A stretch of DNA of 62,649 nucleotides, the filler included, from Basidiobolus ranarum (taxonomy: Eukaryota): the NCBI GenBank assembly GCA_040143965.1. It is 5 parts of 5 records of this genome, joined end to end, with 100 filler letters (N's around TTAATTAATTAA, not from the genome) between each part and the next. Parts side by side here need not be neighbours in the genome. Positions count along the whole stretch, not along the records: positions 25,141 to 37,592 come from JASJQH010000543.1; 4 more parts are not named here. The stretch is one strand, 5' to 3'. The position numbers and the translations under genes were made by a program. The notes under the pieces are model-generated. The model was not told the DNA's origin. It saw nothing but the letters and a program-made list of their open reading frames with translations, and made no database searches. Each line of letters opens with the position of its first letter. Position 1 is the first letter of the stretch. This document shows, piece by piece, positions 12,475 through 58,147 of the stretch.

Positions 12475-12574
12475 NNNNNNNNNNNNNNNNNNNNNNNNNN
12501 NNNNNNNNNNNNNNNNNNTTAATTAATTAANNNNNNNNNNNNNNNNNNNNNNNNNNNNNNNNNNNNNNNNNNNN
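12475..12574. other. Artificial contig spacer (N44-TTAATTAATTAA-N44)
   Basis: 100-nt N run with a six-frame-stop linker; identical spacer occurs four times. Confidence 0.98.
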
Positions 12575-22685: not shown

Positions 22686-23368
22686 ATAACATCGATGACA
22701 AACCCTAACCCTACGACCCAACTGGGAGATGGGACTTTACAAAATATGCTTGGTTATTAATAATTACTGTCCCTAATTAGATGTGCTTCGCTGAATTCAT
22801 TGCGGTTAGACATCATTTCCATAAAGTTTTGATTTTCTATCGATTTACAAGTTAGTCCGATTCGTGTATTGAGGGGTTAGGGTTACTGTTGTATGAATCA
22901 CTCTTCTAAGACGCCAACCCTTAGGACCCCAACCCTAGCCTTATGATTTCTAGATCCTTCATGAGTAATAAGTGATCTCATACTATGTAACTGTACTATA
23001 AAAAACCAAGCCAATCATCAGTTATGATTAGGGCAATGGAGATTGTCATTCAATCCATTACTGCGATTGTCGTAACACTTGCTCAAGTAAACACTAGTTT
23101 CAAGTGCTTTGACCTGATATAGTCCATAGCCGCTTTAAGATGACACCATTCTTGGGTTGCGAACCTCGACTAGAAATCGTTTAGCATAGTTCGATACCAA
23201 TAGATCAGATATGCTTGGCATTTTGAAAGTTGAAGAGACAGGTCACCCTAAGTCTTGATTTGGTAATGACCATTTAAAGCGAATCATAAAGTGTGACCGG
23301 CTTCGGTGATATATATAAAGGCCGGTCCTTTCATCAGTAACAACCATCAACAAACACTCTACTCCAAC

Positions 23369-24325
23369 ATGAAGTCTCTTGCCATTCTATTAACTACTGC
23401 TCTGACTGTCATTGCTTCCACTTCGGCCTTTCCGGCTCAGGAAACTGATTCAACAGACAGTGCTCCATCAACCTTTGTTGCGACTGCCACTCAAAGCTCA
23501 TCATCTGCTGAGCCAACGCCATCCAACGACTTCCCTGGTCAAGACGTTATAGGACAAATGGGACAAAATATCACCGACCAGTGTTTAAATACTATCAAAG
23601 GCGTTGTTGCTATAGGTAATGTACAGTCTTGCATACCTGCCCAACAACTATTACCAATCTGGAATCAAACCGTATATGATCCAGTCAACATTGCCAATTA
23701 TGTGTCCCAGGGATTGGACGTGATATGTCAAGCACCAGAATGCCCATCGGAGGCGTTAACCATGGCATCTAATCAGTTGGAAAGTAATTGTAACTCTCAA
23801 GATCAACAACAACCCTTGGTACAGGGTGCTACCGCTTTAATCAAAGACTATGGAGCTTGGAGAAAACTGGCATGTGAAAAATTACCAAACAACAGTACCG
23901 ACACTAGTAATGATCAGAATGCTGACACCAATGATAAATATTGCCTTGCCGATGCCACTCAGTTCTACATCAATAAGAGCTTGATCATCCTTACTGGAAA
24001 ATGGAGAGAAAACCCTGAGCAGTTATGCCCTCCTTGTGCTGACACTTGGTATTCAGATATCAAGCAGCTTGAGCCACAATATGCTGACCTAAAAGATTGG
24101 GAGTTTGCTTCGTATCTTGAGGAAGTTTGTCCGAATCTCAAGAATAGTACACAAACCCCTACACCTACCGAATCTCAATCTGGTAGTCCCGCTGATACTA
24201 CTGTTGTCGAGACAGCCACTACCAGTGATCAACCTGAGGCGACTGTTACTCAAAGCACTGCTCCTACCGAGCAACCTAGCCAAGCTGAGTCCACAACCAT
24301 GGTGTACGTTACTACGGCTGAATAA
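23369..24325 (+). CDS. Secreted Cys-rich protein with Ser/Thr-rich linkers
   Basis: ATG at 23369 (MKSLAILLTTALTVIASTSA signal), TATATAAA about 55 bp upstream; central domain with 10 Cys; Thr/Ser/Glu/Pro-rich tail; intronless. Confidence 0.85.
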   Translation: MKSLAILLTTALTVIASTSAFPAQETDSTDSAPSTFVATATQSSSSAEPTPSNDFPGQDVIGQMGQNITDQCLNTIKGVVAIGNVQSCIPAQQLLPIWNQTVYDPVNIANYVSQGLDVICQAPECPSEALTMASNQLESNCNSQDQQQPLVQGATALIKDYGAWRKLACEKLPNNSTDTSNDQNADTNDKYCLADATQFYINKSLIILTGKWRENPEQLCPPCADTWYSDIKQLEPQYADLKDWEFASYLEEVCPNLKNSTQTPTPTESQSGSPADTTVVETATTSDQPEATVTQSTAPTEQPSQAESTTMVYVTTAE

Positions 24326-25040: not shown

Positions 25041-25140
25041 NNNNNNNNNNNNNNNNNNNNNNNNNNNNNNNNNNNNNNNNNNNNTTAATTAATTAANNNN
25101 NNNNNNNNNNNNNNNNNNNNNNNNNNNNNNNNNNNNNNNN
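25041..25140. other. Artificial contig spacer
   Basis: Same N44-TTAATTAATTAA-N44 linker. Confidence 0.98.
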
Positions 25141-26116
25141 AGTGGTTTGGAGAATTAGAGGAATTGGTGGTTTTCACTTGTTGATTTATTGAGTAGAAAG
25201 TTAACATTTATAGTTTTGTCAAGATGTAAACAAACTAACGTGTAGAATATGTTAAGGAAGGTCCCAGAAACATGTGTGCAAAGTTTGGGGCTTCTAGCAC
25301 AAGTTTGAAACATCTATATATCTGAGAACTTATAAGTTGGTAAAAATATTCTAAGTAAATTCCGATTGAGAATATTTGATAATATCTTAGTGAGCTATAA
25401 GATAACTAATTACTAAGTTATATATGACTATATAGGTGTTTAGGCAATGCTAATTTCAACATTCCATACCTTCTTGGCAGTTTTAGCTCTTGAACATTTA
25501 ATTAGCAATTTGTCTTTAACATTAAGGCAAATTGTGTTAAAGGTACTTTGTTCTTTTTTAACCTGGAGTAAAACTTTGGTTTTAGATAGTTTTGCATTGT
25601 TTTCTTCTTCTACAACTGTGTCCCAAAGTCCTTTTTCTTGCTGCAGCATTTTCATTTTAATTTTCCAAACTTGATAATTGGTTCCATCCAATTTTTCAGA
25701 AGAAAGAAAAGTTCCATAAATTTGAGAAGTAGACATTACAGAGAGTGCAAGCTCGGGGCTCATAACCTGTTAAAGTATTTGGGAGCCTGTTGGAAGTGGT
25801 TTGGAGAATCAGAGAAATTGATGGTTTCACTTGTTGATTTATTGCATAGAAAGTTGATATTTAGAGTTTTGTCAAGATGTAAACAAACTAACATGTAGAA
25901 TGTGTTAAGAAAGGTCCCAGGAACATGTGTGCCAAGTTTGGGGCTTCTAGCAAAAGTTTGAAAAGTCTATATATCTGAGAACTTCTAAGTTGGTAAAAAT
26001 ATTCCAAGTAAATTCCTCATGAGAATAATGGGTGATATCTTAGTGGAATATAGGATAATTAAATACTAAGCTATACAAATGACTATATAGGTGTTTAGGC
26101 AATGCTAATTTCAACA
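25141..26116 (-). mobile_element. Ty1/copia LTR-retrotransposon remnant (LTR - PBS - truncated gag - LTR)
   Basis: Diverged direct repeats 25768..26116 (minus strand TGTTGAAA...TTTAACA) and 25141..25461 (cut by contig end). PBS GGTTATGAGCCC follows the right LTR. The 306-bp interior encodes a copia gag N-terminus (EKLDGTNYQVWKIKMKML..EKGLWDTV...KTAKKVW). Confidence 0.88.
25768..26116 (-). repeat. LTR (349 bp, TG...CA termini)
   Basis: Begins TGTTG and ends TTAACA on the minus strand; homologous copy at 25141..25461. Confidence 0.85.
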
Positions 26117-26407
26117 ATCTCAATCAAAATCATAATCTCACTCAGGTTTTCTCTCACAAGTCTGGTTATTGAGGCAACTTGAAACCACTTTTTCAAGTTT
26201 CTCTTGGACATAACATATAGAATTAGTTGACAATTATGACAGGCATCCGGTTGCAAATGGCGTTTGCTTTGTAAGACATATAACTGTTAACTGGTAATTT
26301 CGTGAATAGGTTAGGAACATCAACTTAGGAGAATTATTTACTTTGCAAGTTTCTGCACAAAGAAGAGTTGTTGCAAACTATTTGATACATAATTCAATTG
26401 GTGCGCT

Positions 26408-26606
26408 TTCACCTCGAGTATATATATCTTCTATTCGGCATCTCATAGTTCTTGACATTTCGCATACATCCTCCCATATATTAAACTTATTAAATAACTC
26501 TGTCACTAAAATAGAATCTTTAAGACAATACTTGCTACATCTCCAATAATTTTTATGTCTCTTGTTCTAAACGCTTTCCACATTAACGTTCATGACAAAT
26601 TATCCA
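26408..26606 (-). pseudogene. Fragment of family-B DNA polymerase (ExoIII region), large-DNA-virus-like
   Basis: Manual translation with one frameshift and one stop: VDNLS*TLMWKAFRTRDIKIIGDVA/KYCLKDSILVTELFNKFNIWEDVCEMSRTMRCRIEDIYTRGE. Matches the PolB YCxxD ExoIII motif followed by the EM.R......TRG[QE] segment. Confidence 0.7.
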
Positions 26607-27968
26607 CGATCGGGACCAAGCATATTTCTTAGGTTAGCCATGCAGACTGCTCAAATCACCAGTATACCAAGCTAGCTATTGATACTCATTCAGTGGAAGC
26701 AGAAGAAACTTTCCGAAATTGGAGAGTGGTTATTTCAGTTAGATTGAACTAGTAGTAAGAACTTAAATTGCGATAAATAATGGGGCAGTGATTGATAAAG
26801 TAACAACGCAAATTCGAATCATTAATCATCCACTCATTATATTATATGGAAGGCGTAACCATGCAAATATAGATAATGAAATATTTTGGTAACTTGGCTC
26901 CTGTGGGTGAATTCACCATTGATTGGTCGGAAACTTCCAATCTCAGGGTAAGATTCAGATCCCCATTCGTCATTCAAATTAGGTTTCAACAATAATGATA
27001 GTAACCCTTTGATCAGGTTTTTTCTCCCACACAATGATGCTTGGATACTCCTCCAATCGAGAGATCACGAAGTTCCTCCTCTTAGCACGCATCAAGTAGC
27101 AGCTGAGTTTTAACAGCATTCAGGTTCGAATCGCTCTGTTAGCTAGTTGAGTTTGCGAATTACGAAGTTAGTGCGGAGCTAGGCAACTAGTATGCATGTA
27201 GACCAGTATACTTTTATGGAATTCTGGGGGGGGTTTCGCAAAAGTGTGTATGTATTTCAAAGGCGTATATATGTTTGTGACATGGGAGTTTGGTGAACAA
27301 GTCACGCCAGAATTCTCAATGGAGTCTGGGTAAGTTGCACGAAGCATGGCTCAGTTTACTATGGACAGATTGTAGAGCGCATACAGAGACCAAGACACAG
27401 GCAGAATGAAGCCATGGATGGTGTTCTTGAGTTACCAAATACCCACAAAACGGTGCTCAATTTGCCTTAATCAAGAGTTGATGATATACGGCCCCTGCTA
27501 CTACGAAGTGTGTACTTGTCAATTTGAGACAACTCCCAATCTTCAATCAAATCTGAACGCACCTGCAACGCGATAAGAAGGTACCGTTGACACACATGGT
27601 GTCGCCCAATCATACGATGAGCCAGTGATATTACAAATGGGAATGTTTCAGGAGATGACGAATGATCCTTCGCTTCCATATTGGGTAACATTAGAGATCG
27701 AACGGAAGTGTAGATAAGTGTAGGTACCTGGAACAAGTGATAAATGCCCCTAATTGCTAGTTTTAATAATAAGTTACGCAGTAACAGCAGTTGAGAAAAG
27801 ACATTCATGTTTTGGGAATGACAAGTAAAGAAATCAAAATAGACTACATTAACCATGTCGTGAGAAACATAATCAAGTAAACAATAGCTGATTAAATAAT
27901 GGTTGGGATTTTGTAAAATTGATCAAATAGAAAAACTCTGATAGATTTCAAAAAAAGGTGAAGGTTCC

Positions 27969-29259
27969 TTAAGATTGTGGCTCAAAATTGATTACACGGC
28001 TGTCATTGATGGCGCCAACTACCTTGTTGTTCTTGATGAAAGCATCAAAGTTATGACAATCATTGGACACCTTGATCTTAGGAACTGGAACACATTTGCC
28101 GATAACTTCTGAGGTGATATTCAACTTCGCATACACGTTGGCATACTTGCCTTGGTTTTTGGAAGCGAAGGCCTGTTGAGCATAGTATACTTGGGTAAGA
28201 GCGAAGCGAGTAGGGTAGTTAGGATCTTCAACGAAGGGAAGGGAAGTATTGGTGGAGTCCTTGAACTCCATATGACCCCATAAATCAGGATTAGTAGGAT
28301 CATTGGAATACTGAGGAGTCCATGAGAATTGATATCTGGGGGTAACTTGGTGGCGTCTTCTGAGAGCGGCGGAGTTAGATACTGGTGGGATTCCGAAGAA
28401 GAGTGAGGCAGTACTGGTGGTGTTTGCCTGGTTGGGTAAGGGATAGACAGATGTGGGGTTATAACCAGTACGCAAAAAGTTCATGTTTTGGTAGGCTGGA
28501 ACACCCTGAACATCACGCTTACTGGTGGCCTTGTTGGATAGAAGACTCTTGTGGAGTTTCCACTCAACTGACCAAAATCCTCCTTTAACCTTGGTCCAGT
28601 TAGGATCGTTGACCTTGCCATTGGTGTATACCTTGAATTCAAATTTGGATTTGATATCCCAAGTCTTACCGACTCCTTTGTTGGAGGGTGGTTTATCATA
28701 AATTAGAGCCTCGTAAAGTCCCAAAGCATTCATTTTAATAACTTTAAGATTGGTGTTGGTACGATCGGCATCGAGGTAGAATTGAAAATCGTTATCATCC
28801 CACACTGTGTAAAATTGATTAGTCTATGATACTAGAAGGAGTAGTGTTGTATATGAAGCATACCTTTGCCGGCACAGTAAGACTTCTTGGCACGGATGAC
28901 TTCCTCGTCGATTTGGGCTCCAACATAAATGTACTCTTCATCAAACATGATCTACATCCGAAAGAGTTTAGCTATAAATAAATGATGTTGATACGAATTA
29001 AAGATAGTATTACCTTGACACGAGTGTTCATCATTGAGGGAGGGGTTATACCAGAAGGGCCTTGAATATTGCCGAAGTTCTGGGTCCATGGGACCTTTTG
29101 CCATGCTTCATCATCAAGCTTACCATCAAGGACAATGGAGCCAGAAGAGCGATAAGATACATGGGTTTTGGGAGAAGGAACGTTGCATGTACTATGAACG
29201 AACGAAGGAGCAGATAAACCCAAGACTACGAAAGACTGGACAATTTGAGATAACTTCAT
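27969..29259 (-). CDS. Secreted CBM9-like (DOMON-type sugar-binding) protein, 3 exons
   Basis: Signal peptide; IVLDGKLDDEAWQKVPWTQNFGNIQG..TRVK|IMFDEEYIYVGA; VWDDNDFQFYLDAD; WSVEW; MNFLR; WTPQ....PDLWGHMEF. Introns about 28952-29012 and 28807-28863. Confidence 0.8.
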
Positions 29260-32200
29260 GATATACTAACAAAATGAATGATGCAGTAAGATCAAAACTA
29301 TTGACTGATGCTTTGTTTTCGAGAAGCTGTAAAGAGAACAAACACCTATGTTGAAGATATGTGATTATTCAGAAGTGCAGCAAATTTAGAATGAGTATGG
29401 ACGGCCAAGCGTCTAATGAAGAAAAGATGAATAGGGGGAAGATGAATGGTGAGGAATGACGGGTTGCTGATACATATTTATGTTCAAAATCAGTAGCACT
29501 GAAATCCTCATTTTTCTAGAATTGAGCCCCCGCTTTTGTCCCCAAACCAGTTCAATTTACGCTGTGGAACCTGAGGAGGTACATGGGCCATTGTTGGCTG
29601 AGAAAGCCATCATAATCTCACACTGTGCTATTAATAGTTCTCAAGCTTTGCTGATCCCCTAACTAGGGAAGATATTGTATTCATTTGTGGTCTGTGAATA
29701 AATTGGGTCTCGAGTATCAAATTAGAACGATTTACTCACCTGCAAGTGATTGAATATTCTAATAAAGTCTGCTGAAGATCTAACAACTGATATCACTCGA
29801 GACATGACCTCATACTGCTTCGGCGCATAACACACTGGGTATATTTGTAGGACAATACTCCGTTAGATATGAGATCAGTCAACTTGAACCTCATCTCATT
29901 TCGCTACAGTCACGAACCATTAGATACAGATTTCACGATGCTGTACATGCACGATTCATTCAGCCTTACAATGAAATGCTTTGTGTCCAATCAATCACAG
30001 GGTCACTGGAGAGCGCATGAACTACGTTCCCAGATACGCTTTCTTTGTATGGCAATATGGGCCTATTCTAAAGATAGATCATAGAGATTATAGCCCGTGT
30101 ACCAGTTCATCTATGCCCAAGATTGTGTTGATCATCATCCGTTTTGAGCAGCGAGATCGCTAAAACAACGCACTAAAGAAGCAATGGGTAGTGACCCTTT
30201 GGTCAAGCGTGAAGGAAGTCTATTTGGGTAATGTATGAACAGTCATAAGTTACGAAGCACCCCTATAATGTGGCCACTCGAATTCTATTTTGCCGTTGGG
30301 CAGTGTATTCGACTTCTGAATGAAGCAACATATGCATGGAGGCCGGACTAAACAATTACCTTATTGAATGCTTAGTTAACATCTGGGACAGAGATACGTC
30401 TCATTATTCGTTTAATATGTAGAATTTCATCAATGCTGAATCCAATTGCAAGTTTCATCGAGCGCATTAATGAAAAATCAACACCCGTCTTACTAACTAG
30501 CAAAGTTTTATTGCAATGCCAAGCAGTATTTCCGACAATGTTCTGCGTGTCGACCGGCACTTCCTATATAGATACTACACTAGATACGGTAATTACATTA
30601 AGAACAGAGTAGTTTTAGCCGCATGCTTCTATATATTCTACAATATATACCTAGAAGCTCCCAACTGGAGTAGCCATACGCAGAAAAGCTATATTTCCCT
30701 AGCTTTGCGAGAATTGTTCTATCATGGCCTGTATAGCTGCAACATGGGCCTACAAAGTGGCGATAAACTCATTGGTTGTGTGTGAATTCATACCGCAATT
30801 ACGGCTGGCTCTTTAGTTGCCGAATTTATTTCAGATCACGAAGAGTATTAGGGAATAGCCAAGGCCAAGCGTATTCTATAACGAGCAAGCATGCACTTTC
30901 TGATGTAAATCGCTCAATTCTTGATTACTGAGTCACCAATAATGCACTTGCTTTCTGATTTAGAAATCGTTGTGTTCACTATTGCAGGGATTGTTCCGCT
31001 CCAGTGGCAATTGAACTGTGCCTTATTAATCCTAACAACAACGTATGTCCACTGCTCTTCATTGGCTCATTAACCTTTCCTCATCTTTCAGGGTATATTT
31101 GACCAAAGCACCGTTTGCTAGCTCCACTGAAGCTGAAGAAGTCTAACAAATTGATTCGTAGTGGTTTCATTTTGAGTGTTGGATACCACCAATGAGGCGA
31201 CCAATTCGCTCTTTTGGAGTATGGTGTGATAAGAAGAACCGTTGTGTTGAGAAATGAGATCAACATGCAAAAATTAGATACATCAACGTCAGTCTCATTG
31301 GCGAGCGATAAATGCTCCATAAGATATGCATTTCTCTTTGTAAACACTTTTGTCCCAATTGGTAAATTATGAATGTATTAAACGCCTCTGAAATATCCAA
31401 ATAAGCTCCCTACATGTAGGATCATATTTGGCACGGGGTTGCCTACATCGAGATATCAATATACAACTACCGAATCAATAGCACGTAAAGAATCATTACT
31501 GAAGGGCGCAAATTAATTTAAAAAATATAGATTGCTTCCGATCAGCTCTATTAAGAAAAATCCGGTAAAATATACTAACCAAAACCAAGGAAAATGATGT
31601 GGTAACCTCTTCCTTAATTTTCGATATCTGCGCTACCGTTTTTGTTATTGATATCAAATGCAAGCACCCAATCGATCACCCCAATTGATAGTACAAATTT
31701 GCTTATTAGGCTTGCAAGCTTTCACCTCAAATGCTACACTTTGGCCGCCATCTATAGTTTCTATGACCCTGCATTGAGCCGTACCAGGACCATTGAAGGT
31801 CCCATTATCACCACCGCTCCTTTGATGATGGTGTTACAATCATTCGTATTTCTGCTTAATGTGTTGTTAATGCTTTCATTGCCAAGACTACAGCGCCCAG
31901 TTTATGGATGCTATTATCATACTCTGGAACTGCTATACTTGGAGCTTTTTACGATCACAGGACAAGCTAAACCAGAGTAATTTGTTGACTTCTTTGTTCT
32001 ACCAGATTTCCTGACAGGAATCAAGCACTTCCTGAGGCACATATCATTTTGATGAATTGGATTCAGCAATAGCCCTACACCTATAGACGTATAGTGGCCC
32101 TACACCGTCAACATGAGTTGCTATCAGAGTTATCAAGTAGCTTCACAAACCTAAATGGATATTAGATAGAGGTCATCACAACGGCAAAATTTTCCACTGC

Positions 32201-33471
32201 GTGATTGCAAAGAATTCGTGGACTCGCCTCTTATAGATAGTTCAGTTTGACTAACCAATTACGTGTGTATCACCCGCTGCAAGTTAAGCCAGCCGGGTAA
32301 CTGTTTCGACTGTATTGGGCTCAAGCATTTTTTCTCTGACAACCAATAAAACATAATTAGATTCAGGATAGGCTAACCTCATTTATTCACCACCTACACA
32401 CAGCCAATGGAACCAATACTATACCTGGTTTAATAGTAACGAAGTAATGTGACTAAATTCAACGTATAGTAGCCATATGATGACAACAGAATCTTAACCA
32501 CAAGTATCACTTGAGCTCCAGATCTTTCCTGCTCTAGAAGTTGAGTTACTTAGAAGCATTAGTCATGCGCGCAGATTCCTAACCATATGTGTAGGGGTTA
32601 GTACTATATGTAACTACTTTCCGCTTCATTTGGGAAGAGCTATAATTGGAATTCTCACAGCAGTAATAGCGCCCAGCAACTAGTGGAAAACAAATGAGAT
32701 TTGTACTTCAGCGTCCATAGAACCAGTTCATTACAGAAACTGTAAAAACTGGGTTTAAGTGAAGGATAAATTGTGAAAGACCAGAAAGGTGAAAACTATT
32801 GAACCACAATATCTGGAATAGCTATATATTGCCAGTATTTAGAAGAGATAGAAAGTAAGTAAAAACTTATACTGCAGTTCTAGACACAAAGAAATGTGTC
32901 AGTTTATCTTGTACAATTCAAAGGCATCAATAACAGAGATGCATTTCACTTCTCCCATTCTATGCAAATACTCTTCCACTACATCTGCTAGAAAAGATAT
33001 TCAAAATGCATAACTCTTGGAGTAAATGAGGTTCAACCAAGAATATTTTTTTTCAAAGCCTTTTTATGACTGCAAGCGATTTTTGCTAATGAATATTAGT
33101 AATATTTTGCAAAACCTTATGTGTCGCTGAAGGCATTGACTATAGTTGATGTTTTTAGAAGACTCAAGCATACACTAAATACAAGCCAAACATTAGCATT
33201 TCATTCAATACTCAGTAGTCAGAGATGTTCGTGTATTTCATTTAATCATGTTCAAGATTTGAAGAACTGTGATTTTTAATGGAAAGTTTTAGAATTCTCT
33301 GTTAAAGAACAGAAGTTACACCTCTTGAGCTAGTGGAATACATCAACAAAAGACTAGGGTAGACAAGAGAAATATTTATATTAAGAACTAGACTATTCAC
33401 ATGCCAATTCCAACGTGGTATGCACGAGGGAAATTGCTATTTTGAAAAACGAAAAACATCCTTATGGATGT

Positions 33472-34625
<1,154 letters not shown>

Positions 34626-34837
34626 TATAGGAAGGTAAAAATGAAAAGAGCTCTATAGAGTAGTATCGAGTGCTTTTGTGATGTTTAAATTTCACTATCG
34701 ATCTGGGGAAATCAGCAGGCTTATTATATATTAGCAAGGTGGGATAGCGTGGTCTTCAGCCATCTGGAACGATAGTCGATGATGAAGAAAAAAAGGCTAC
34801 AACAGATAAATCACGCTTCACTGAGGAAGATATAGAA

Positions 34838-34853
34838 TTAGTCATAGAGTCAT
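34838..34853 (-). promoter_or_regulatory. Tandem Gcn4/CpcA-like sites upstream of DAHP synthase
   Basis: Minus strand ATGACTCTATGACTAA about 215-230 bp upstream of the ATG; ARO3/ARO4 are known general-control targets in yeast. Confidence 0.4.
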
Positions 34854-36718
34854 GGCCAATGGCCATCTGCTTTAAGATGGATTAGGAAAATGATACAGTG
34901 GAGGTGATTAGATCTTCTGAATAACCGGGCAAATATGTTACACCAAAAAGAAGCCCCTGAATTGCCTAAATCTGTAAAATCTTGTCCAATACTACAAATA
35001 GTGTTTCGAGGAGAATCGAAGTGTAACAAACCACTGAAATTATGCTTCAATAATGCTAATTACGACAATTTCCGCCAACCGTGTGGGCTTCGATGACATG
35101 ATTCGCTGCAGTTGGGTTGAGAGGGAACGGAAATGCAATGATTGGTATCAAAGAGGTCAAATTGATTTACTAAAAGCAGTCATTTGAGCCTTGACGGGTC
35201 TGTGTTAGTAATCGTTTATATCAATCGTGGGGTACTTCGCTTAATCTTAGGTTAAATAATGACTAGCAAGCCTTGGTATAACCAGGTTTGCACCTGGCTA
35301 TTGGATGAAGCAAAGATACCAAGCCGATATTCTGTACATTGCTCAATATGTCAATGTATTCCTGCTTCCCTCACGGATAATTCACAGACACAAGCCCTTT
35401 CTGTCTCAGGTATCTTACTGCGGCTCTTGCTAACGAACTTTTTGTTGATTGAAGACTGGGCATCCGCCCGGACAATAACTATGCCATCATTCAATACATC
35501 TAAGCCACTCGCTCTGTCTTCAATGTGTTGAGGTTGAATGAAACGTCATGGCACTTCTAATGGACACTACAAGGCGAGGTTGGTATGATTTCTCAACTGG
35601 TTTGAAACACGCAGTACCCAGACATCCAGCGTGCTAGCATATGAAAATCCCACCGTGGTACGTGCCTTGTAAGCCATCCTCCTATAATTAAATCAAAGCA
35701 GGTAATACAAGGAAAAGGAATTAGGCAGCACAAGCTTTCGGTGTAATGGTTGATTATCAAGACTCCGACCACTGATCGTACTTCATGGGTAATCGTGCAC
35801 ACTGATTGGATTTATTTGGTGGCTGTACTTTCTCTCCTTTTTAAGTCAATGACTGAAGAGTGAACCGCATATGGAACATTGATTCAGTAGAAATGGATTA
35901 CGTCGATATATTTTCATGTAAGATTCTCTAGATACGCTTCTTTCTGTATGAACAACTGTTTTGTTACGAGAAAAACTGGCTTTTCAAATTCACTTTTATA
36001 AAAGAACCGGGAAACAAAGAGCCAAAAGCAGAGTGCGAGGTATCTTATAAAAATAAAATATAACCAACTACCTTCATAATAGTAAAGTGCATATAAGGTC
36101 TTGGTAAAGGCGATAGTTTATCATTAGTTCTAGCACTGGAATATAATCTGATTGAGAATGTTCTTACCCTAATTCATTTTAAAAGTTCATTGGGATAGAT
36201 TTTTTCAATGCTTAAGAAAACATCACTTTGAAAAAGGCAAGGTCAGATTAAAGGCAACGACTTTACTTAGCCGGGATGGCGATAAGCTGGAATAAAAGTG
36301 GCATTTTGAGCACCTTCAGCTACAATAGTATCTTCAAAAATTGCTATTACTCCTGCCTTATGGACTTAGTTTCCACTAAAAATCATAACTCCTGCTCTAG
36401 TAAAAGGTGTTGTAACGAGAGGTGAAGCTGATAGACACGAATGAAGGACTCTTGGACAGTTCAGCGTTTTTCTTCAGCTTGAGAAACTAAACAAATACTG
36501 CTCCATTCTCGAAATAATTAAATCTAATATACATATCGTCAGTAGCTGAATGATTCTCATAGGTAAAGTTGAATATATCTAGCTTGAAAAGACGCTTCTG
36601 TATTATTAAGCTGAATCAGTAATTTATTTGTTACAAAAAAAAGAACGAAAAATCTATATATAATAATTGACAAGAAAGTCGAAATAGTACAAAATTCGAA
36701 TTCAACAAAGTGAAGTCG

Positions 36719-37592
36719 TCATGACTCCATCGCAGTTATCATACTCTTGATTTTGTCTGCTTCCTGAATAAATTGAGCTATCTTCGCTTCACTCTCCACC
36801 TGCAATTTCTTTACTTGCTTATCAATCAGAGAACGCACGAATTTTTCTACCGTCATACTTTTTTCCTCTTCGTTAAGTACTCCGTTTACTGGAGTTTCTT
36901 CATCTCTGACATCTTGCGTCTCATCATTAGCCAAAACTGGATTCTGGGTTGAATCATTTGGTGTTGGGATTTGATCTTCGTCTTCTTGAGCCTGAACAGC
37001 CGAAGACCATACCTCAGCAGTGCTAACCTCAGGCTCCCCTGAGGATACAGCATCTGTTTCAGGCTCCTCTGGAACCTCTGATTCATTCAACTTGTCACTA
37101 CCTTGTACTTCAACTTCAGAGTTATTGTGTTCCATCAAATTTTTTGCGATGAATTCAAAATGTTGAGCAACAGAGCCAAAGAATTCAGTAGATTTTTCTT
37201 GGATAGGATCATTAGGTTCGGTATCTAAAGCATCATCTTGCTTGGAATTTTCAATATTACTGTTTTCCATTCCCTTAGATTTTTTATAAATGGGGGTATG
37301 CTCTTCCTCGAACTGATTCTCATCAGAATGCAATGCTTGTACCTCCATCGGGTCCATCTCATTATGAGCGGTTGCATCAGTAGCGAATTCTTGCTCTTCT
37401 GTATCCACATCCTTCTTTCTCTTTCGCCCATCACGTACATTCTGAACGGGTGAAATGGGTGAGAATTCCTCACGTGACTCCGAAGCAACATCTATCACTT
37501 CTTTCTCTTCCAGTTGCTCAAGTTCCTTCTGTCTTTTAGTACCCTTTCGCTTTTTGAGCTCTGGTTGAGTTTGGGAAGCCTCGATACCAGCA
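36719..37592 (-). CDS. C-terminal part of an acidic, low-complexity protein with a terminal coiled coil; 5' end lost at contig edge
   Basis: Long minus-strand ORF (36719..37498 in the track) apparently continuing toward the contig end; basic NLS-like patches (KKRKG, RKRKK), Glu/Asp-rich region, ending MTVEKFVRSLIDKQVKKLQ...MES*. Confidence 0.75.
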
Positions 37593-37692
37593 NNNNNNNN
37601 NNNNNNNNNNNNNNNNNNNNNNNNNNNNNNNNNNNNTTAATTAATTAANNNNNNNNNNNNNNNNNNNNNNNNNNNNNNNNNNNNNNNNNNNN
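37593..37692. other. Artificial contig spacer
   Basis: Same linker. Confidence 0.98.
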
Positions 37693-50135: not shown

Positions 50136-50235
50136 NNNNNNNNNNNNNNNNNNNNNNNNNNNNNNNNNNNNNNNNNNNNTTAATTAATTAANNNNNNNNN
50201 NNNNNNNNNNNNNNNNNNNNNNNNNNNNNNNNNNN
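50136..50235. other. Artificial contig spacer
   Basis: Same linker. Confidence 0.98.
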
Positions 50236-55893: not shown

Positions 55894-56779
55894 CTTAGTA
55901 CGTCATTACATAGACCTCATTAATAACCAGAATGAGATTACTCTAATACATTTTCATCCAGCAACGTAGAAGCGTGGTGTATATAAGTGTCTAGAATATA
56001 GCGCATTAATTCTAATATCAAAAGAAATAAACTTTATATACCTCTGTGACTGCTATTGTCATTATATATATGGCTCAAATTTAAAGCAGTAATACAATTA
56101 GCCCCTTATGACTCTTTCAGACAAGATGCTCCTCCAATTCTTACATATTTACACTGAGCATGTGCAAAGTGTGGTGTTAGCTATACCTCAGAGGTTAGGC
56201 TCACAAGACAACCAGCTCGACTCCAACACTTAATTATTTCTCCATTAGGGAATAATTATATATTTACATGAATCTAATGACTCTCCTATTATATTAACTT
56301 TGAAACTGGACTTCTAAAGGGAGCTGTTTACTGTTGCCTGAATCTGAGTTTCTGGAAGCGATGCATAATCTCATTATTTCCAAATTCAGTCTCTGTAGTA
56401 ATTGGTGAATTCTCAGGAATTTATGGTATATAGGGGAGGACCAGTACCGTACAAATAGAGTCTCTCTTGGGTCAGACCTCAGTACCTCAACAGCTTAAAG
56501 AGGATTTATCCGTCGCGTGATGATGGCATAAAATTCGGCACTTTTAAGAGAGTTGCTCTGTCACGTCTTGGATCTCCCTTTAAGCAGTGTTGAGGCAAGC
56601 AACTGAAACACGTCTCTTCCATTCCGGAATCGTCAATGAAAGCAACGTAGACCAATTGAGTATGTTGAATGACTGTTCCAACAGTTACCAATTAAATTAA
56701 AGAATCAAAAACAAAAAGTACATAAAGTGATGATTCCACCTCGGCTTCTCATCTTTTCACCTCCCTCTGAATTTTCAGT

Positions 56780-58147
56780 ATGGAATCTCCAAACTTTGCC
56801 AACACTTCACGTCACTTTATACATAAGGCTTGGAGGTTTGTTACAAGGATAAATATCACATTCTGGATCATACTATTTCTATTACTAGGAATTCTACTTG
56901 GTTCTCTCGCTCCAGACTTTTCTTCACATCTAACCCCCATCTCAAATATTTTCATATACATGGTGAAATGCCTGGTTGTTCCCCTTATATTTTCCACACT
57001 CACCGTAGGTATCGCCGGTCATGGAGCTGATCTTAAAAAGATTGGAGTGATGGCCATCAAAGCCTTTGTATACTTTGAAATTGCTACTACCATCGCCCTT
57101 GCCATTGGACTGATCGCGGTCAACATCATCAAGCCAGGTGTAGGAGTGAACCTCAATGCCTTCGGTACAGGAAATACCACGGATGTGGTCCAGAAGGAGA
57201 TCACTTGGGAGACAGAACTTTATGGGATTATACCTGAAAGTTTCTTCAAAGCAGCAGCAGATAATGTCATATTACAAATCGTATTTTGCAGTGTCATGTT
57301 TTCGGTGGCAATGATACGAGTTGATAATGTGAAATATACAGGACCAGTATTGGCATTTCTGGATGGATTATCCCATATCATGTTCAAGGTAACTGGACTG
57401 GTCATGAACTTTGCTCCGTTTGGAGTACTCGCTTCTATGGCAGTAACCGTTAGTAAATCGGGATTGGGGATTTTGATAAATCTTGGAAAACTGATTGGCA
57501 CCCTTTATGTAGCACTCTTCGTGTTCATGTTGGTTACATTCATTCCAATATTACTCTTATTAAAAGTACCAATTGGTGAATTTGCTCGGGCAGTGGCTCG
57601 TCCAGCATTAATCACCTTCAGTACATCTAGTTCGGAAGCAGCATTACCAATTGCCATGGAAAATATGGAAAAATTCGGTGTACCAAAGCAAATCGTCGCA
57701 TTTGTCGTTCCAACTGGATACTCATTCAATTTAGATGGGTCTACTTTGTATTTGGCTGTTGCTAGTGTTTTTGTTGCTCAAGCAGCTGGTCAGTCACTAG
57801 GTATAGGGGATCAATTGTTGATGATGTTGATCCTTATGTTGACCTCCAAAGGGGTCGCAGCCGTTCCCAGAGGTGCGATTGTGGTATTGGCTGCCGCTTT
57901 AAATAGCTTCAATCTTCCACAACAAGCTATCTCAGTAATCCTTGGTGTCGATCAATTGATGAATATGGCCCGAGCAGGGGTAAACGTCATTGGTAACTGT
58001 TTGTCTTGTGTCGTTGTTGCTAAATGGCAAGGGGAATTTCGTCAGTCTGGATGGGAGCTTGAGTTGGACCAAGAAGATTCACATGCTCTAAATCATGATA
58101 TTGAGAGTCAAGAAGTCAAACCAAATTATGTAGAAGTTTATCACTAA
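56780..58147 (+). CDS. Dicarboxylate/amino acid:cation symporter (DAACS), bacterial GltP/DctA-like, intronless
   Basis: VVPLIFSTL..GIA, YFEIATTIAL, FSTSSSEAALP, VVPTGYSFNLDGSTLY, LMLTSKGVAAVPR, ILGVDQLMNMAR..VNVIGN. Confidence 0.92.
   Translation: MESPNFANTSRHFIHKAWRFVTRINITFWIILFLLLGILLGSLAPDFSSHLTPISNIFIYMVKCLVVPLIFSTLTVGIAGHGADLKKIGVMAIKAFVYFEIATTIALAIGLIAVNIIKPGVGVNLNAFGTGNTTDVVQKEITWETELYGIIPESFFKAAADNVILQIVFCSVMFSVAMIRVDNVKYTGPVLAFLDGLSHIMFKVTGLVMNFAPFGVLASMAVTVSKSGLGILINLGKLIGTLYVALFVFMLVTFIPILLLLKVPIGEFARAVARPALITFSTSSSEAALPIAMENMEKFGVPKQIVAFVVPTGYSFNLDGSTLYLAVASVFVAQAAGQSLGIGDQLLMMLILMLTSKGVAAVPRGAIVVLAAALNSFNLPQQAISVILGVDQLMNMARAGVNVIGNCLSCVVVAKWQGEFRQSGWELELDQEDSHALNHDIESQEVKPNYVEVYH

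Follow-up and report, generated by a model that had tools for sequence, protein, structure and literature searches.

We identified the remnant of a family-B DNA polymerase gene in an assembly of the early-diverging fungus Basidiobolus ranarum (GCA_040143965.1). This remnant is very probably an inert endogenous fragment of a Nucleocytoviricota-type large DNA virus residing in a Basidiobolus chromosome. It lies in the stretch of DNA analyzed here (62,649 nucleotides; hereafter, the window), which joins five parts from five records of the assembly end to end, and it falls within the part taken from record JASJQH010000543.1 (positions 25141 to 37592). The remnant was delimited by homology with P0001, an intact polymerase of 820 aa, and by a profile of the family to which P0001 belongs, and it contains the following features:

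26408..26604, minus strand, remnant of a family-B DNA polymerase gene (≈66 codons, ≈200 bp; P0001 homology and family profile)
26590..26592, minus strand, in-frame TGA stop within the remnant, at the position of P0001 Y342 (from the sequence read, the frames and the alignment)
26531..26535, minus strand, single one-base frameshift between ...GDVA and KYCLKD...

An earlier interpretation made from the DNA alone (the sequence-only reading) had described peptides in two minus-strand frames, separated by one frameshift and preceded by an upstream stop. Both frames were reread, and the peptides, their coordinates, the frameshift and the stop were as claimed. From 26604 to 26533, the minus strand encodes DNLS*TLMWKAFRTRDIKIIGDVA, and from 26533 to 26402 it encodes KYCLKDSILVTELFNKFNIWEDVCEMSRTMRCRIEDIYTRGESA. 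The frames have one base in common (26533), which implies a single frameshift at 26531-26535. Thus, the open reading frame is broken by both a TGA and a frameshift inside 66 codons. The region is also AT-rich, as had been noted, with a GC content of 33.3% for positions 26378-26620 compared to 38.5% for the whole window.

The remnant spans residues 338-403 of P0001 and positions 331-397 of the 813 positions in the family profile. It contains the ExoIII motif as YCLKD, which aligns with the invariant residues Y363, C364, and D367 in a 36-sequence alignment of the family. Searches of the window by tblastn with P0001 and with the family profile did not find ExoI, ExoII, or polymerase motifs A, B, and C, and the strongly conserved text Q-x-K-V-L-N-Q that follows RGE in the family is missing from every frame at the fossil. 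With 66 of ≈813 positions left and ExoIII as its sole motif, the remnant cannot encode a polymerase. Similarity ends abruptly at both edges of the remnant, implying that the rest of the polymerase gene was cut away instead of being gradually eroded.

The assignment to family-B polymerases, which the sequence-only reading had based on the ExoIII region, was borne out by several homology searches. In a search of long proteins covering 5.8 billion sequences, P0001 was the sole match (82% identity over 44 residues; E 5e-17). In the reverse direction, tblastn of P0001 against the 62.6-kb window gave an E value of 1e-23, with 36/44 and 16/29 identities in the two frames, such that the frameshifted upstream piece was also recovered. 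A profile built from 36 family members, whose polymerases are ≈800 aa long, scored 67.9 bits (i-E 1.5e-22) against the six-frame translation of the window (125,294 residues). This similarity is far beyond chance. Over the whole fragment, 50 of 63 aligned positions (79%) are identical to P0001 and 43 of 63 to a second protein, P0002, which is encoded on an 8.8-kb contig.

The 62-aa ORF alone gave no polymerase match in Pfam, PHROGs, or PDB sequences (phmmer, E up to 10). The blank Pfam result is explained by the position of the fragment: in P0001, the first Pfam polymerase model (exonuclease) ends at residue 328 and the second (polymerase) starts at residue 396, so that the fragment (338-403) falls between the two models. 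Very short relics of this kind escape standard domain scans but can be retrieved by a lineage-specific profile.

Neither P0001 tblastn nor the family profile detected a second polymerase-like site in the 62.6-kb window. We also compared the window with 3775 ORFs (minimum length, 100 aa) taken from 160 viral and metagenome loci. The 24 resulting matches all lay at 26396-26536 and came from polymerase ORFs only. Hence, no other viral gene was found beside the fossil in the window with P0001, the family profile, or these 3775 ORFs.

P0001 is known only from a single 19.8-kb contig assembled in a public run and retains all of the exonuclease and polymerase motifs, as judged from invariant alignment columns. 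Pfam (E up to 0.01) gave two matches on P0001, PF03104 and PF00136. Against PDB chains, P0001 scored 1.5e-64 for human Pol delta, 4.8e-63 for yeast Pol delta, and 7e-62 for archaeal PolB, and these near-equal values imply that P0001 is equally distant from Pol delta and archaeal PolB. A total of 168 proteins are related to P0001 at an E value of 1e-10 or better, and those listed (120) are 35-52% identical to it. In the exhaustive search, the ≈800-aa set scored ≈340-630 bits, compared to ≈250-330 bits for the bulk of polymerases of 900-1200 aa. Most of the ≈800-aa relatives listed are from metagenome contigs of up to 95 kb. The named relatives among the 120 listed are from Linnemannia elongata, Mortierella sp., Podila clonocystis, Bifiguratus adelaidae, Ramaria rubella, and Clydaea vesicula, together with two EukProt entries; in summary, among the relatives listed, the sources of named members are Mortierellomycota, Bifiguratus, and one chytrid. 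An intein domain (PF14890) was present in 8 of the 120 listed relatives (P0021, P0061, P0067, P0070, P0076, P0085, P0088, and P0095), which are 1001-1189 aa long compared to ≈800 aa for the others listed.

Close members of this family were rare among the viral and metagenome loci. In the IMG/VR scan (80 loci kept), the best identity was 32% over the best segment, compared to 40-52% within the family. In the metagenome scan (80 loci kept), only L081 (38%) and L123 (42% over a 218-residue tail) belonged to the close family. On L081, a metagenome contig (1-11662), tightly packed, intronless genes lie upstream of the polymerase. The L081 genes recognized were as follows:

L081, Rpb2-like protein of 823 aa (1.7e-81)
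L081, separate C-terminal part of Rpb1 in a 321-aa ORF (Rpb1 domain 5)
L081, uracil-DNA glycosylase (UDG)
L081, D5-like primase-helicase of 686 aa (DUF5906)

Five of the 10 L081 ORFs scanned had no Pfam match. Together, the sequence comparisons support the view that the ≈800-aa family is of virus type and not cellular, with a viral-type gene context seen in one relative, capsid genes aside.

Two phylogenetic analyses were made, one of the family and one that included the fragment. The full-length tree (85 rows, 859 columns; IQ-TREE quick, LG+G4) recovered the ≈800-aa family as a 40-row clade with an SH-aLRT support of 99. Its sister is a 37-row clade (97) that contains polymerases translated from IMG/VR giant-virus contigs, and P0001 pairs with P0002 (99). 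In a tree made from 261 columns around the fragment (84 rows; the long-branched L074 and the partial P0245 were dropped), the fragment groups with P0001 (SH-aLRT 91) and then with P0002 (96), inside a 39-row family clade (96). A tree with the fragment outside the family clade, whose log-likelihood was 35.1 lower, was not rejected by an AU test (p value of 0.188); with 66 columns, this is a weak formal test. These trees comprise polymerases other than labelled cellular Pol delta, zeta, and alpha and other than those of named giant-virus orders, and for this reason virus and cell are told apart here by the scores, the L081 gene context, and the literature.

Identities and profile scores agree with the placement of the fragment. 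Its identity to the 119 other family members has a median of 52% (range 43-68%), compared to a median of 32% and a maximum of 52% for 122 other polymerase representatives (of 125, three of which had too few aligned columns and were left out). When P0001 and P0002 were withheld from the family profile, it still scored 92.9 bits against the fragment, compared to 55.7 bits for a profile made from 46 polymerases outside the family. These comparisons support the conclusion that the fragment probably belongs in the ≈800-aa family. Within that family, the sub-branch of P0001 and P0002 has no named member in the present data. A cluster look-up gave neither protein a name; of the 10 clusters, 3 had named members, two with generic polymerase names only and one with an archaeal MAG label.

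A decayed pseudogene fragment of a host replicative polymerase (Pol delta or zeta) is one alternative source of such a remnant. The fragment does resemble the catalytic subunit of cellular Pol delta in that it belongs to the same fold family, and both its YCLKD motif, which is identical in the alignment of human and yeast Pol delta, and its spacing to RG(Q/E) are shared. Outside YCLKD, however, the fragment tracks the ≈800-aa family: by hand count, only ≈14 of 62 positions are identical to human Pol delta, mostly in YCLKD, EM-R, and RG, compared to the 50 of 63 for P0001. In this respect, the earlier claim that the sequence departs from cellular Pol delta and is nearer to viral-type PolB is well founded. 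The same reading had named TRGQ as the text that follows in Pol delta-like enzymes; the terminal RGE of the fragment is not a decayed RGQ, since RGEQ is itself invariant in the family (R401, G402, E403, and Q404). Texts of the RGEQ type and CEMS, which are invariant in the family, are present in the fragment and common to P0001. Moreover, phmmer found no PDB polymerase for the fragment at E values up to 10, although the library includes yeast and human Pol delta, zeta, and alpha. P0001 itself, at 820 aa, is shorter than full-length Pol delta chains, such as the human chain of 1107 aa. The low similarity to cellular Pol delta and zeta nearly refutes a host pseudogene, and we give this origin only the slightest credence.

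A different kind of alternative is that the polymerase came from another class of element or virus, such as a polinton, a linear plasmid, or a mirusvirus-like or herpes-like virus, and not from Nucleocytoviricota. The virus status of the ≈800-aa family is read from the polymerase and its neighboring genes with no capsid gene linked, and close family members are absent from the 80 IMG/VR loci kept. Mirusvirus-type elements likewise carry RNA polymerase subunits and PolB. However, the two Pfam domains of P0001 (PF03104 and PF00136) are Pol delta-like, and PF03175, the protein-primed type of polintons and plasmids, is not among its matches; a protein-primed polymerase of a polinton or plasmid was rejected on this ground. 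Herpesvirus polymerases score far below Pol delta against P0001 (1.7e-42 vs. 1.5e-64). In addition, the D5-like primase-helicase, split Rpb1, and Rpb2 of L081 occur as in NCLDV-like elements of fungi, the other genes of which group with NCLDVs (PMC7017919). We therefore regard an origin from one of these other classes as improbable, and a Nucleocytoviricota-type source remains the reading that we favor.

The setting of the fossil is that of an ordinary eukaryotic chromosome. Other genes in the window encode an SDF (sodium:dicarboxylate) symporter, an S10 carboxypeptidase, DAHP synthase, a mitochondrial carrier, a G-beta protein, and a WDR26-like protein. The symporter ORF (56771-58147, plus strand) shares 86% identity with proteins from Basidiobolus ranarum and B. 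meristosporus. It has many Basidiobolus paralogues, which are 52-86% identical; apart from a few other fungi, an amoebozoan, and unnamed metagenome proteins, its relatives with names are bacterial (MAGs labelled Gemmatimonadota, 55-59%). The window also contains paired runs of N at 12475-12574, 25041-25140, 37593-37692, and 50136-50235, each with 44 + 44 bases around 12 bases. These runs are evenly placed, ≈12.55 kb apart, and represent the filler between the joined parts. The fossil lies within an AT-rich stretch (29-36% GC) at roughly 24.3-27.1 kb, which includes the N run at 25041-25140. The features that flank it are as follows:

25141..25464, minus strand, second LTR of the same copia element as the LTR at 25795..26119 (LTR self-alignment); its outer edge adjoins the N run
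25440..25769, minus strand, N-terminal part of a copia gag, an internal remnant of 330 bp (Pfam DUF4219, 2e-07; Retrotran_gag_2, 1.2e-05)
25795..26119, minus strand, upstream LTR (in the minus-strand reading) of a decayed copia-type retrotransposon (326-nt alignment, 88.65% identical to 25141-25464)
27969..28823, minus strand, CBM9-like carbohydrate-binding protein, the nearest long ORF on the high-coordinate side (nearest Atlas clusters are CBM9, score 0.95)
23297..24325, plus strand, Ser/Thr-rich protein, the nearest long ORF on the low-coordinate side, beyond the N run at 25041-25140 (Atlas scores of 0.82-0.83 to fungal clusters)

The copia element is an old, heavily deleted insertion that consists of two ≈325-bp LTRs and the gag remnant. 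Its target-site duplication is unreadable because of the N run at the outer edge of the LTR. The fossil and the element are both on the minus strand and are separated by 283-289 bp, the nearer LTR ending at 26119; the distance of ≈290 bp reported earlier is thus accurate. Apart from the LTR pair, self-comparison revealed no repeat in the window, and there were no tRNA genes or tandem repeats. A Pfam scan of 10 small ORFs within or near the flanks gave the copia gag remnant as the sole match.

Neither long ORF flanking the fossil matched Pfam. The ORF at 27969-28823 also had no match among the 3775 viral-locus ORFs. Its 10 best Atlas clusters are of one family or clan, the three rows listed are mostly or wholly bacterial, and a likely first exon lies within 28972-29265 (minus strand). 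As a lead only, this CBM9-type gene may be of bacterial origin in the fungus. On the other side, the Atlas comparison offers a lead that the ORF at 23297-24325 resembles a fungal secreted protein and not a viral gene.

The assembly contains no N from 25141 to 37592, and in it the putatively integrated fossil is contiguous with host genes. This bears on whether the similarity could reflect chance resemblance, contamination, or an assembly chimera. The segment is very short, and integration is read from the assembly, which would leave some room for such an artifact. Against this, an E value of 1e-23 in a 62.6-kb target led us to reject a chance match, a free viral contaminant would lack the stop and the frameshift, and the N-free sequence at 25141-37592 reaches host genes. 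We consider an artifact of any of these kinds extremely unlikely.

It could also be proposed that the remnant has been retained for use by the host, for example by templating small RNAs that target related viruses or by forming a portion of a neighboring transcript. The fossil does lie on the same strand as the gene at 27969-28823 and downstream of it. However, the stop and the frameshift within 66 codons and the location in an AT-rich intergenic stretch adjoining a decayed retrotransposon speak against retention, and we judge a present role for the host to be very improbable. We infer instead that the viral fragment most likely has no function today.

Large DNA virus sequences in early-diverging fungi, to which the sequence-only reading had alluded, are well documented. 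[quoted passage not shown] The polymerase group that they call 'fundsalphavirus' is present in 14 fungal species of six phyla, and these hosts include Basidiobolus meristosporus, B. heterosporus, Mortierella elongata, and Bifiguratus adelaidae (PMC7017919). The fundsalphavirus polymerases are flanked by genes for D5, SNF2 helicase, methyltransferase, Rpb2, Rpb5, and split Rpb1; the copies often carry stops and frameshifts and are sometimes near retrotransposons, whose activity was suggested to have aided the insertion of such copies (PMC7017919). In that study, fundsalphaviruses were placed near Pithovirus, with sequences from the moss Physcomitrella nested inside. Gallot-Lavallée and Blanc (2017; PMC5294986) list three fungi and label the moss polymerase 'Pitho'.

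The B. ranarum remnant resembles the published copies in several respects. It is a family-B polymerase fossil with a stop and a frameshift in an early-diverging fungus, with a retrotransposon nearby; the ≈800-aa family includes proteins of Linnemannia elongata and Bifiguratus adelaidae; and the genes flanking the L081 polymerase (D5-like, Rpb2, and the C-terminal part of Rpb1) match the published set. From these shared host names and this shared gene context, and not from accessions, we infer that the ≈800-aa family is likely the fundsalphavirus group. Unlike the published copies, the fossil is only ≈66 codons long and solitary, as no further viral gene was found in the 62.6-kb window, and the published screen (PMC7017919) may have missed so short a piece. 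The earlier proposal of a past infection by a possibly undescribed lineage is supported as regards the viral fossil, whereas at the family level the lineage had probably already been described (PMC7017919). A full-text search of the literature on a Basidiobolus giant virus or fundsalphavirus returned nothing relevant beyond this paper.

Other cases of Nucleocytoviricota DNA in fungal genomes differ from the one here. A 1.5-Mb endogenous viral region is present in Rhizophagus irregularis (PMC10640383), and DNA derived from Nucleocytoviricota is likewise present in fungal genomes in the case of the Mycodnaviridae of zoosporic fungi (PMC13533422). These cases involve either extensive regions with many genes or active infections by other viral lineages, in contrast to the single 200-bp relic in B. 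ranarum. According to Myers et al. (2026; PMC13533422), the giant-virus polymerases associated with fungi fall into at least five distinct clades.

These comparisons are consistent with the following course of events. DNA of a large DNA virus would have joined a Basidiobolus chromosome during a past infection, and the source virus would have belonged to a lineage with compact polymerases of ≈800 aa, presumably the fundsalphaviruses of Gong et al. (PMC7017919). All but ≈200 bp of the polymerase gene would then have been lost, or may never have been inserted, through deletion, rearrangement, or insertion of a short piece. The viral DNA may have been inserted by end-joining as a short piece, or as a larger piece that was later pared down, possibly aided by nearby retrotransposon activity. 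The surviving piece would later have acquired one stop and one frameshift.

Such polymerase fossils are already published for Basidiobolus, and what is new here is a short, solitary, and broken relic. For this reason, the fossil alone leaves the overall picture unchanged and serves as a further record that a large DNA virus and a Basidiobolus fungus were once in contact. Its main use is as a pointer to the sub-branch of P0001 and P0002, which is worth seeking in Basidiobolus assemblies and cultures. The fragment resembles P0001 in its identity of 50 of 63 positions, in its RGEQ and CEMS texts, and in its pairing in the tree, whereas P0001, unlike the fragment, is intact with all polymerase motifs. 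It is conceivable, but rather doubtful, that the fossil and the intact P0001 and P0002 form a separate branch within the giant-virus-like lineage of fungi, one linked to Basidiobolus and perhaps still circulating. If this were true, Basidiobolus could offer a large DNA virus host that is a non-zoosporic fungus and can be cultured.
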